NCBI RefSeq assembly: GCF_013122565.1
Contig: NZ_CP053258.1
Reading direction: 5' to 3' (one strand)
DNA from: Escherichia coli
Lineage (GTDB): Bacteria; Pseudomonadota; Gammaproteobacteria; Enterobacterales; Enterobacteriaceae
DNA: 64,000 nt
Positions within the stretch are counted from its first letter, which is position 1, and every line of letters starts with the position of its first letter. The translations under genes and the position numbers were made by a program. This document shows, piece after piece, positions 41,620-43,630 of this stretch. The notes beneath the pieces are model-generated. The model was not told the DNA's origin, searched no databases, and saw only the letters and a list, made by a program, of their open reading frames with translations.

Positions 41620-41831
41620 ACTTTCCAGCCCTGAGTTGGTGGCTCTGGCTGGAGTGAGATAGTCATCATCTAACGCATCAATGCTAATACCATACTGAAA
41701 CTATTGCAAGGACGTGCTGGTTTTATAACCCGCAAGTACTGTATGATTATCCAGTTAGCTCTGAGACATTTTCACTCTGGCAATGCGCTTGACATCCTCC
41801 ACGCCCTGAATGACGAGGATCCCTGCTACGT

Positions 41832-43040
41832 TCAGGCTGTCGCCTGAATCATTTCGGTGGGTTCCTGCTTCAACGAGCGGCCTGACTGCACCCTCTCTCC
41901 ACAGGCAAGAACGGCGTGCCCCGCCGCTAAAATGTTACGAGCGCCGTTTACATCGGCGTTCGCTGTATATCCACATACCTGGCATCTGAATTTACTTTGT
42001 GACAGGCGGTTCTCTTTCGCTGTATGACCACAGTACGCGCAACGCTGGCTTGTATACGCTGGCGGAACAGCAAGCACCTGACCGCCACGCCAGAGCTGCT
42101 TGTACTCAAGCTGGCGGCGCATTTCATACCAGCCCTGATCCAGTATCGAACGGTTTAAACCTGATTTTGCCCGGACATTGCGCCCCGGCTGGCTGACCGT
42201 ACCCGCTGCTGACTTTGACATGTTGCTGACCTTCAAATCCTCAATGACTATCATTGCGTGGTTTTTGCTGACGGTCGTTGTGACTTTGTGAAGGTAGTCC
42301 CTGCGGATATTTGCGATACAGGAATGCAGTCGCTGTATTTTGCGTTTCTGCTTCTGCCAGTTGTTGCTGAATTTGACCCTGCGGCTTAACTGTCGCTGAA
42401 GTCTCGCCAGCGTCTTCTGGTTTTTCTGAAAACTGTTTACAGGCTCAAAGACTGTGCCATCTGACAGCGTGGCGAGTTTAGCCACGCCAGCATCCAGCCC
42501 GACCATTGATGCTGAAGGGTGAACCGGAGTGGATACTTCACTTTCTGTCTGAATACTGATGTACCACTTACCGCAGGACTGGCTGACAGTGACATTTTTC
42601 ACAACTCCCGTGACCTGACGGCTATTCCGGTAGCGCATCCAGCCCAGTTTCGGCAGAAAAATACGGCTGTTTTCCTGATCGAGCTTAACGCCCTGCGGGT
42701 AGCGGAATGCATCATCCTGTCCCCGCTTTTTGAATCGGGGAAAAGCAGCCCGCTTCCGGAAGAAGTTTTTGTAAGCCCGCTCAAGGTCTTTCAGTGACTG
42801 TTGCAATGGCTGTGAGGGCGAATCTTTAAGCCATTGCGTTTCAGTGGCGTTTTTCCACTCAACCAACCAGGAAGCCATTTTCCCGTAAGGGATGTATTTA
42901 TTACCGGCCTCATGATTCTCATTCTGACGTGCCAGAGCACGATTGAAAACGAAACGACATGCGCCTGCGAAGCGCCTAATTTCACGCTCCTGTTGACCAC
43001 CGGGCCTTAACTGGAATTTAAATGCCTGTAGTCGTTTCAC
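41832..43040 (-). CDS. tnpB: TnpB (OrfB) RuvC-like RNA-guided-nuclease-family protein of the IS200/IS605 family
   Basis: 402-aa intact ORF with C-terminal Zn-finger (CAYCGH...CQVCGY) and RuvC-like region characteristic of TnpB. Confidence 0.85.
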
Positions 43041-43110
43041 AGGTCAAATGATACTTTGGTCTGTGAAAAAAGAAACCGATATCCGGCGTGGAAGGCATTG
43101 TGTTTTCCTG

Positions 43111-43514
43111 ATGCATGTTCACCTGGTCTTTGTCCCAAATACCGACGCCAGATTTTTGACCATGACGCGACAGAAAAACTACGCACTTACTTTTCAAATG
43201 TATGTGCTGATTTTGAAGCTGAACTGGTTGAAATGGATGGCGAACCAGATCACGTCCATTTGTTAATTAACTATCCTCCCAAACTGGCGATATCCAGTCT
43301 GGTAAACAGCCTCAAAGGCGTATCGGGTAGGTTACTGCGACGAGATCGACCAGATATTGCAGTCAGGTATTACTACAAAGGCGTTTTGTTGAGTCCTGGC
43401 TATTTTGCCAGTAGCTGCGGAGGTGCGCCAATATCCGTCATCCGCCAATACATTGAACAACAGCAAACACCTGGTCAGGTGGAAAACCGCGCCTTATATC
43501 CCCGCCCTGAATGA
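43111..43514 (+). pseudogene. tnpA: IS200-type Y1 (HUH) transposase TnpA, disrupted by a frameshift near the N-terminus
   Basis: N-terminal MHVHLVFVP in one frame (ORF 43048..43266) continues as PKYRRQIF...DHVHLLINYPPK...YYYKG in the other (ORF 43056..43514); junction at about 43130-43137 within gtcccaaatac, consistent with a single-base indel. Confidence 0.6.
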
Positions 43515-43630
43515 ACGGGGTTTTACGGCGCACCGGATAAAGCAATCATCGTTCTTGGGGCGTTAATTGCGCTGCTGGAACTGCTCCGCTTTCTGCTTCA
43601 GCTTCTGAACTGATAGCGGAAACGTAACTA

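Follow-up and report, generated by a model that had tools for sequence, protein, structure and literature searches.

Between gor and arsR of Escherichia coli, a transposase gene split across two reading frames lies beside an intact tnpB. The locus raises the questions of whether the frameshift is real, whether the element is an inert relic and why its tnpB is still open; the original prediction had taken it for an immobilised IS200/IS605-family element in which TnpB might be retained or domesticated. Within the window, i.e. the whole 64-kb stretch of DNA that was analysed, we read the locus with good confidence as a non-autonomous copy of IS609 with a dead tnpA, an intact tnpB and guide-RNA region, and an inactivated dinQ.

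The IS609 copy and its frameshifted tnpA

The element is an ordinary copy of IS609, which is already known. Over 1,753 bp its identity to IS609 copies from other loci in E. coli is 98.6–98.8% (judged against copies labelled IS609 family by PGAP, which names the matched genes IS609 tnpA and InsQ/TnpB). A match to the query occurs in 5,424 of 5,426 complete E. coli genomes, and IS609 occupies roughly 16,000 places in E. coli. Identity, ends and profile matches bear out the predicted family and narrow it to IS609. With IS609 of E. coli (an ISfinder entry; insQ/ydcM locus in K-12) it shares this high identity along its whole length, the 402-aa TnpB, the ends and the gene order; it departs from IS609 generally in a one-base tnpA deletion allele, a left-end +A/T variant and the rare dinQ site. 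The span first proposed (41700–43560) was roughly right, the true ends lying slightly inside it when nine different insertion sites are compared. The features of the element are:

41789–43536, minus strand: IS609 (IS200/IS605 family), 1,748 bp, left end 43536 and right end 41789 in tnpB-sense orientation, from alignment to E. coli IS609 copies
43537–43540, minus strand: target tetranucleotide TTAT and putative TnpB TAM, directly 5' of the left end
43500–43520, minus strand: left-end imperfect hairpin CCCCGTTCATTCAGGGCGGGG, differing from canonical copies by an added A and a C-to-T change
41798–41819, minus strand: right-end imperfect hairpin, equal to helix 8 of the RNA model described below, with two non-pairs in the window copy (T-T and A-G)
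43048–43514, plus strand: tnpA pseudogene (Y1 HUH transposase), start ATG 43048 or GTG 43063, stop TGA 43512–43514
41832–43040, minus strand: tnpB, 402 aa, uninterrupted, from the ORF listing and from family and structure matches

The right end reads ...GGATGTCAA at 41789 and the left end CCGGTGCG... at 43536. Before the left end stands TTAT at seven different sites in E. coli, and TTAC in the copy from Escherichia sp. L009; at the unoccupied dinQ site of K-12 TTTAT adjoins the right-flank sequence. Insertion 3' of a fixed tetranucleotide, and subterminal imperfect hairpins in place of terminal inverted repeats, are features of the family; there is no target-site duplication, the left flank being TTAT and the right flank GCGC... 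with no repeat. TTAT would serve as the TAM of TnpB. The left-end +A and T variants are common only to copies at the dinQ site (the window, L001 and L008).

On the plus strand, MHVHLVFVP is encoded in the 43048 frame and PKYRRQIF...HVHLLINYPPK...YYYKG in the 43056 frame. Comparison with other family members, which had been proposed as a check, defined both ends and confirmed the one-base indel expected at 43130–43137: alignment to E. coli IS609 copies places one missing A between 43134 and 43135 (canonical GTCACCAAATAC, window GTC^CCAAATAC). The lost A is a single base flanked by C and outside any homopolymer, and its deletion creates CCC; the C/A homopolymer context suspected of causing a read error was not found there. 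With the A restored, TnpA matches NCBIfam NF033573 (transpos_IS200; 138.9 bits, cutoff 55), and the tnpA sequence encodes both the HUH motif, HVHLL, and the tyrosine of a Y1 transposase, within RQYIEQQ; in the window it is a pseudogene.

The frameshift is a real allele, and sequencing error is ruled out as its source, because an independent assembly (GCA_052983875.1, L008) is 100% identical over 43825..41651, with outer flanks that differ by about 1.9%, and because the exact 54-mer across the deletion occurs in 240 of the 5,426 complete E. coli genomes (about 4%). These genomes hold the dead-tnpA allele at 328 places, up to three per genome, and at three or more chromosomal loci (dinQ, yfeD-gltX and yajI). 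Further tnpA stop codons are found in sister copies that share the deletion: of the seven others sampled, six have the in-frame stop GR*LRRD in common and L094 has two different in-frame stops, while in the window copy tnpA is otherwise free of lesions. Since tnpA is absent in full form at 23 of 59 related loci (about 40%), a dead or incomplete tnpA is the normal state for this family. The deletion that the window shares with L005 may reflect descent, gene conversion or recurrence; the window copy was rejected as the closest relative of L005, from which it has 25 differences, against 21–26 from copies without the deletion.

Disruption of dinQ

The flanking genes gor and arsR had been correctly named, but the insertion lies within the type I toxin gene dinQ, whose disruption had been overlooked. 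Nor does the element sit directly upstream of the arsRBC promoter: between it and arsR lie about 350 bp that include the promoter of dinQ as well as the agr sRNA with its terminator. In this neighbourhood gor-rlmJ shows no more than 98.4% identity to any complete E. coli genome. The host features are:

41590–41673, minus strand: single agr antisense sRNA, the dinQ antitoxin (Rfam RF02891 AgrB, 108 bits, E=3e-19)
41737–41788, plus strand: retained promoter-proximal part of dinQ, from alignment to K-12 (LexA box TACTGTATGATTATCCAGTT at 41737–41756, transcription start at about 41754, transcript +1 to +35)
43537–43613, plus strand: dinQ remnant, codons 3–27 and stop, without GUG start, SD and agrB target

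IS609 sits at +35/+36 of dinQ, +1 being placed from the published GUG start at +195 (PMC5066626). Relative to K-12, 166 bp (+36 to +201) with the agrB target, SD and GUG start are missing and IS609 is in their place; what survives is the location between gor and arsR, the promoter with its LexA box, transcript nucleotides +1 to +35, the last 24 codons and an agr sRNA. K-12 has both agrA and agrB, whereas here there is one agr gene, an agrA/agrB hybrid. With a toxin ORF that lacks SD, GUG start and agrB-complementary region, the locus does not form a dinQ/agrB type I toxin-antitoxin pair. To judge from the allele, the dinQ toxin is inactivated, because +36 to +201 are gone; on the same reading the agr antitoxin sRNA is now an orphan whose target has been lost.

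The dinQ insertion is rare (6 of 5,426 complete genomes), and in these six RefSeq annotates a frameshifted tnpA, InsQ/TnpB and a truncated dinQ. No excision scar, i.e. the 166-bp deletion without the IS, was found in the 5,426 genomes. The 166 bp may have been lost with the insertion, by slippage between two TTTAT repeats, or by recombination between two nearby IS copies. The retained LexA-controlled dinQ promoter points into the IS, antisense to tnpB.

TnpB, its putative guide RNA and selection

As predicted, TnpB is full length at 402 aa with its RuvC triad (D183, E267, D363) and zinc-ribbon cysteines (C334/C337 and C353/C356, CxxC...CxxC), the residues of the nuclease module. It matches NCBIfam NF040570 (guided_TnpB) with 381.7 bits and the ISDra2 TnpB structures 8BF8/8EXA with E=4e-56 over residues 3–376, and an identical protein carries Pfam PF12323, PF01385 and PF07282. 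By analogy with characterised TnpBs it would be an active nuclease.

Two features concern the guide RNA:

41789–41944, minus strand: conserved structured RNA, putative omega/reRNA scaffold, covering the right end and the last 113 nt of the tnpB ORF (41832–41944, stop codon included)
41773–41788, minus strand: putative 16-nt guide GCGCAUUGCCAGAGUG, host flank directly 3' of the right end, antisense to dinQ +20 to +35

RNAalifold analysis of 27 relatives gave 41 base pairs, 22 of them with compensatory changes; 96.4% of cells were paired, against 39–50% in slid controls, and 0 of 500 shuffles reached the observed values. Many G-U pairs of the model exist on the minus strand only. A structured RNA across the tnpB 3' end and the right end is what a TnpB/omega-RNA module contains, and the window copy keeps 37 of the 41 pairs. 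Folding of the single sequence gave z=-0.67, so that the weight rests on the comparative analysis. The prediction of an omega-RNA at the tnpB 3' end, on the minus strand, is upheld by this covarying structure; its site (41789–41944, guide 41773–41788) is upstream of the 41650–41850 proposed, and 41590–41788 belongs to the host: it holds the agr sRNA and, with the LexA box, the promoter of dinQ followed by transcript positions +1 to +35. RNA function and TnpA recognition are uncertain in the window copy, because the right-end hairpin has two mismatches and the left end an extra base.

The covariance-model search suggested with the prediction found no curated guide-RNA family above threshold in 39000–46000. 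In E-value mode it returned a sub-threshold match to RAGATH-18 (Rfam RF03064) at 41862–41905, the support for the structure coming from the 27-relative alignment. RAGATH-18, described as a TnpB guide RNA, the reRNA of IS607-type TnpBs (PMC11061315), is the nearest Rfam family, and its core stem CCUGUGGAG ... GAUGAAGCAGGAA matches helices 3–4 of the IS609 RNA (41864–41905). The IS609 RNA scores 29.6 bits, below the gathering threshold of 44.9, and so is not a member by the Rfam criterion; its internal hairpin is much shorter, and it comes from an element of the IS605 group instead of the IS607 group.

The guide is positioned from the known TnpB/omega-RNA architecture, and expression of the RNA is presumed; in a consensus scan for promoters and terminators, no promoter rose above shuffle expectation. 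The guide sequence differs at every insertion site, being whatever flanks the right end. TTTAT followed by the guide sequence is present at the unoccupied K-12 site, and the exact 32-mer in 477 E. coli genomes; in the window, the guide's own match lacks an adjoining TTAT and there is no other match within the 64 kb.

Selection on the two genes differs. Between orthologous dead-tnpA copies dN/dS of tnpB is 0.23–0.57 (pooled 0.37), and about 0.2 against Escherichia sp. L009; for tnpA it is about 0.8–1. When dead-tnpA copies are compared with one another, 0.59 of the tnpB changes are non-synonymous where 0.72 would be expected (p=0.02), and the same deficit is seen outside the RNA overlap (p=0.004), while tnpA has 17 non-synonymous changes and 1 synonymous. 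On these figures, from 12 copies, tnpB is under purifying selection of moderate strength (dN/dS ~0.2–0.4) and tnpA looks neutral. Part of the tnpB signal could pre-date the death of tnpA or stem from gene conversion with active copies.

Were both genes decaying and tnpB intact merely for lack of time, the element would be an inert relic. The copies diverge by only 1–3%, a level at which it is no great surprise to find a 1.2-kb ORF still open; of 13 different E. coli copies (counting the identical L089 and L092 once) two have a damaged tnpB, one truncated at codon 386 and one annotated as frameshifted, and the end hairpins of the window copy have mismatches. We nevertheless think a relic unlikely: the non-synonymous deficit in tnpB has no counterpart in tnpA of the same elements, tnpB is uninterrupted in 74 of 80 family genes whereas 23 of 59 related loci are without a full tnpA, and compensatory changes maintain the RNA structure.

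Mobility, retention and domestication

For the non-autonomous IS609 copy preferred here, the following course is proposed. IS609 inserted 3' of TTAT within the 5' UTR of dinQ, a gene under SOS control; by analogy with characterised TnpB systems, its RNA would mature into a guide that bears 16 nt of flanking sequence, and the guided TnpB would cut TTAT-flanked copies of the guide sequence, that is, unoccupied or freshly excised dinQ sites, after which break repair from an occupied copy would restore the element. Such a role in retention, suggested by analogy, needs TnpA-driven excision. Mobilisation in trans by the TnpA of another IS609 copy is possible, because the ends are largely intact and both subterminal hairpins and the cleavage sites are kept. 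The description of the element as immobilised is accordingly not established, the same dead-tnpA allele being present at three or more loci.

A further step, that the tnpA-dead element persists and spreads between lineages by RNA-guided homing, TnpB cutting an unoccupied dinQ and the occupied incoming allele being copied across, we regard as quite unlikely. The target TTTAT + GCGCATTGCCAGAGTG, confirmed in K-12 and in the 477 genomes with the exact 32-mer, is likely to be common in E. coli strains whose dinQ is intact. Homing, if true, would explain the 2.2-kb IS-centred tract that is 100% identical in two genomes with surroundings about 1.9% different.

It is very doubtful that the host has domesticated TnpB, for example to regulate genes under RNA guidance or as a defence nuclease, and that the protein no longer belongs to a selfish element. 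tnpB is open and under purifying selection where tnpA is long dead, at syntenic sites common to diverged strains, and the guide adjoins an SOS promoter. Against this, the guide is merely the right-end flank and different at each insertion site, its match in its own genome lacks TTAT with no other in the 64-kb window, a dN/dS near 0.4 indicates relaxed, not strong, constraint, and the dinQ insertion is rare. The RuvC triad is intact here, in contrast to the known nuclease-dead regulators derived from TnpB; with that triad, and with a single guide match in the window that lacks TTAT, the protein does not fit a TldR-like regulator. Its candidacy for domestication, as originally put forward, is weak on these grounds, the more so as full tnpA is often missing at related loci.

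Least of all do we credit a programmed -1 ribosomal frameshift created by the deletion, by which TnpA would still be made at a low level from an attenuated autonomous transposon: GTC CCA AAT does contain C_CCA_AAT, a formal X_XXY_YYZ heptamer in the required -1 direction, a slip there would give the ...VFVPKYRR... common in the family, the allele occurs at several loci and up to three times per genome as if still moving, and the window tnpA has no second lesion, but AAU in the A site slips poorly in E. coli, the 60 nt downstream are unstructured (-2.3 kcal/mol, z=+0.59), no SD-like stimulator lies upstream, the zero frame continues for 41 codons before a stop, all seven other sampled deletion copies have extra in-frame stops, and the 17:1 ratio of substitutions is that expected of a pseudogene. 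Unlike the programmed sites of IS1 and IS3 type, the heptamer has no stimulatory element and is not conserved in relatives, where TnpA is in a single frame.

A broken tnpA beside an intact tnpB is well documented, and the significance of the non-autonomous IS609 copy lies mainly in its correct annotation. To this are added the precise IS609 ends with the TTAT target, covariation support for the guide-RNA scaffold, a single dead-tnpA allele at several old chromosomal sites with tnpB still under selection, and a natural dinQ toxin knockout that leaves an orphan antitoxin sRNA; together they could offer a modest natural setting in E. coli in which to test the model of retention by TnpB. Our search of the literature on IS609 TnpB, insQ, and dinQ with IS609 found no functional study of the element. 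The only biochemical work found on IS609 concerns its TnpB, one of nine that were purified and screened for trans-cleavage, the passage concerned stating no result specific to IS609 (PMC12781874).

The mechanistic models of the family are IS608 of Helicobacter pylori and ISDra2 of Deinococcus radiodurans. IS609 has in common with them a Y1 HUH TnpA, subterminal imperfect hairpins instead of inverted repeats, the lack of a target duplication, and a structured guide RNA encoded at the tnpB 3' end and right end. Insertion is 3' of TTAC in IS608 and of TTAT or TTAC in IS609, and the right end finishes in TCAA in both. In IS609 tnpA and tnpB are divergent with start codons 7 nt apart (IS605-type), whereas they are co-directional in IS608 and ISDra2, and IS609 TnpB has a 15-residue insertion relative to that of ISDra2.

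The IS609 element and its site in dinQ

The element belongs, as the original prediction held, to the IS200/IS605 family. With megablast it matched 5,424 of 5,426 complete E. coli genomes (median 3 places per genome), and the matched genes are annotated as IS200/IS605 (IS609) tnpA and InsQ/TnpB. Its ends were fixed by comparing nine different insertion sites, which revealed no target duplication; directly before the element stood TTAT at every site, except for TTAC in the Escherichia sp. relative. Its right end closes with TCAA and its target is TTAY, both as in the model element IS608. 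All defining features open to testing were present and, by its sequence, the element is an IS609 member. The configuration is already known, RefSeq having annotated the same arrangement in six genomes.

Features of the element
43536 to 41789: IS609, 1,748 bp, from the left end (LE, CCGGTGCG...) to the right end (RE, ...GGATGTCAA)
43500-43520 and 41798-41819: imperfect hairpins of LE and RE, respectively
43040..41832, minus strand: tnpB ORF, 402 aa (ORF list, sequence)
41789-41944, minus strand: predicted RNA scaffold (covariation in 27 relatives)

Rfam identified AgrB at 41590-41673 (108 bits), and in E. coli 88-3493, which has this insertion too, PGAP annotated a 22-codon dinQ beside it. Compared with the empty site of K-12, the window flanks read ...GATTGCTTTAT on the left and GCGCATTGCC... 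on the right; in K-12 these are separated by 166 bp, with TTTAT directly before each. The published map places the GUG start of dinQ at +195 (PMC5066626), and in its numbering the following are kept.

Retained parts of dinQ
41737-41756: LexA box
about 41754: transcription start, with +1..+35 (41737-41788 including the LexA box)
43537-43613: last 24 codons, all that is kept of the ORF

Positions +36..+201, comprising the agrB target, SD, GUG and two codons, are absent, with IS609 in their place. The dinQ type I toxin gene is therefore, as judged from its sequence, inactivated: a natural knockout. The 166-bp deletion without the IS was found in none of the 5,426 complete E. coli genomes; the loss may have come from slippage between the TTTAT repeats, recombination of two nearby copies, or the insertion itself. 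As read from the sequence, the SOS (LexA-controlled) dinQ promoter now faces the element, in antisense orientation to tnpB and the guide RNA; the effect of this arrangement is inferred. K-12 and 88-3493 carry two agr genes about 230 bp apart, whereas the window has one, an agrA/agrB hybrid (41590-41673, minus strand) with an agrA-like 5' part and promoter and an agrB-like downstream part. Because its dinQ target is deleted, the remaining agr sRNA is an orphan antitoxin, and the locus no longer fits the definition of a toxin-antitoxin pair. The insertion had been placed directly upstream of the arsRBC promoter region, but about 350 bp with the agr terminator lie between the two, which does not support that placement.

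The tnpA frameshift

The ORF list and sequence show a transposase-like frame on the plus strand that starts seven bases from the 402-aa ORF and is split over two frames, exactly as the original prediction described. Alignment with other IS609 copies bore out the proposed single-base indel: one A is missing between 43134 and 43135 (canonical GTCACCAAATAC vs GTC^CCAAATAC in the window). The canonical protein reads ...HLVFVTKYRRQIF... within a single frame, and the repaired TnpA scored 138.9 bits against the IS200 transposase model. An independent assembly located through the exact TnpB protein, GCA_052983875.1, is 100% identical to the window DNA from 43825 to 41651, deletion included; beyond that stretch the flanks diverge by about 1.9%. 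Among complete E. coli, a 54-mer probe (27 nt either side of the deletion; unable to seed on canonical copies) matched 240 genomes at 328 places, with at most 3 per genome. The frameshift, the same in an independent assembly and in 240 genomes, is thus real and recurrent in the population rather than a sequencing error.

Four canonical tnpA copies have no stop inside the element, the ORF passing LE into the flank, which probably explains the PGAP "missing C-terminus" flags. In copies at the dinQ site, one additional A in the LE hairpin loop gives a TGA (window 43512-43514).

Sampled 54-mer matches place the deletion allele at the yfeD-gltX and yajI (nrdR-tsx) sites besides dinQ. Among the seven copies sampled at yfeD and yajI, one in-frame stop (GR*LRRD) is common to six, and the remaining copy, L094, has two other in-frame stops; the window tnpA has none of these. 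The other dinQ-site lineage (88-3493) bears a different tnpA frameshift. Copies with the deletion differ pairwise at 14-44 positions, and the window copy shows no greater similarity to these than to copies lacking the deletion. The deletion copies may have arisen by common descent and then trans-mobilisation, or by gene conversion; the differences fit both.

The deletion creates a formal -1 slippery heptamer, C_CCA_AAT, at which slippage would restore ...VFVPKYRR.... Programmed frameshifting that still makes TnpA is unlikely, however, since downstream structure is absent, TnpA occupies a single frame in relatives and stop codons have gathered in sister copies. The element does not qualify as a programmed-frameshift transposase.

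TnpB and its guide RNA

The predicted full-length TnpB with zinc-finger and RuvC-like region was confirmed: it scored 381.7 bits against NCBIfam guided_TnpB, ISDra2 TnpB structures aligned over residues 3-376 (E=4e-56), and D183, E267, D363 and two CxxC pairs are all kept. With its catalytic residues intact, a TldR-like domesticated TnpB is ruled out. tnpA and tnpB are divergently oriented, and about 7 nt separate their start codons (window 43040/43048). The spacing is conserved in relatives from Gamma- and Betaproteobacteria (L009-L088); each gene's promoter must therefore lie inside the other gene.

For tnpB, orthologous dead-tnpA copies gave pairwise dN/dS values of 0.23-0.57; the pooled value within E. 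coli was 0.37, and that against Escherichia sp. L009 about 0.2. For tnpA, dN/dS was about 0.8-1. Counting each variable site once in seven dead-tnpA copies, tnpB had 26 synonymous and 38 non-synonymous changes against a neutral expectation of 72% non-synonymous (deficit p=0.02; 0.004 outside the RNA overlap), and tnpA 1 and 17. Since tnpB is uninterrupted in 74/80 family loci and tnpA, where enough upstream DNA was available, is full in 36/59 and interrupted (9/59) or lacking (14/59) in the other 23, a live tnpB next to a dead or absent tnpA is the usual state of the family, not an exception.

Synonymous divergence between the window and L009 (Escherichia sp. MOD1-EC7003) is about 0.02 in tnpA but about 0.13 in tnpB. 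This suggests that the element has a mosaic history or that its tnpA/left-end half is constrained at the nucleotide level.

An omega-RNA had been expected at the tnpB 3' end and RE; a structured RNA does occur there, but at 41789-41944, upstream of the predicted position. The sole Rfam match inside the tnpB 3' end, RAGATH-18, described as a TnpB guide RNA (PMC11061315), was sub-threshold. Relatives were 80 TnpB-encoding loci (58-94% identity) from species-representative genomes, and the last ~156 nt up to RE were aligned in 27 of them. RNAalifold gave eight helices with 41 pairs, 22 showing compensatory changes; 96.4% of cells were paired with the predicted structure vs 39-50% when partners were slid 1-3 columns, and 0/500 shuffles matched any observed measure. 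Many pairs are G-U on the tnpB-sense strand only, evidence that the RNA runs in that sense. The window keeps 37/41 pairs (family range 36-41), two breaks falling in the RE hairpin. The guide would be formed by the 16 nt of flank that follow the scaffold (41773-41788).

Exchange of the occupied allele

The tract identical to GCA_052983875.1 spans 2,175 bp centred on the IS (41651-43825). Next to it, the gor-rlmJ and ars regions diverge by 1.3-1.9%, and this mosaic pattern indicates that the occupied allele was recently exchanged by recombination. RNA-guided homing would explain why a 2.2-kb tract is identical in backgrounds that have diverged, but ordinary recombination does so equally well, and homing is considered very improbable.

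The gor-rlmJ segment (43850-45900) reaches no more than 98.4% identity with any complete E. coli genome among the 5,426, so the window lineage is probably poorly represented there. Downstream of arsC, 39180-39259 (minus strand) gave weak sub-threshold Rfam matches to naRNA4 and ES036, and looks like REP-type palindromic repeats.
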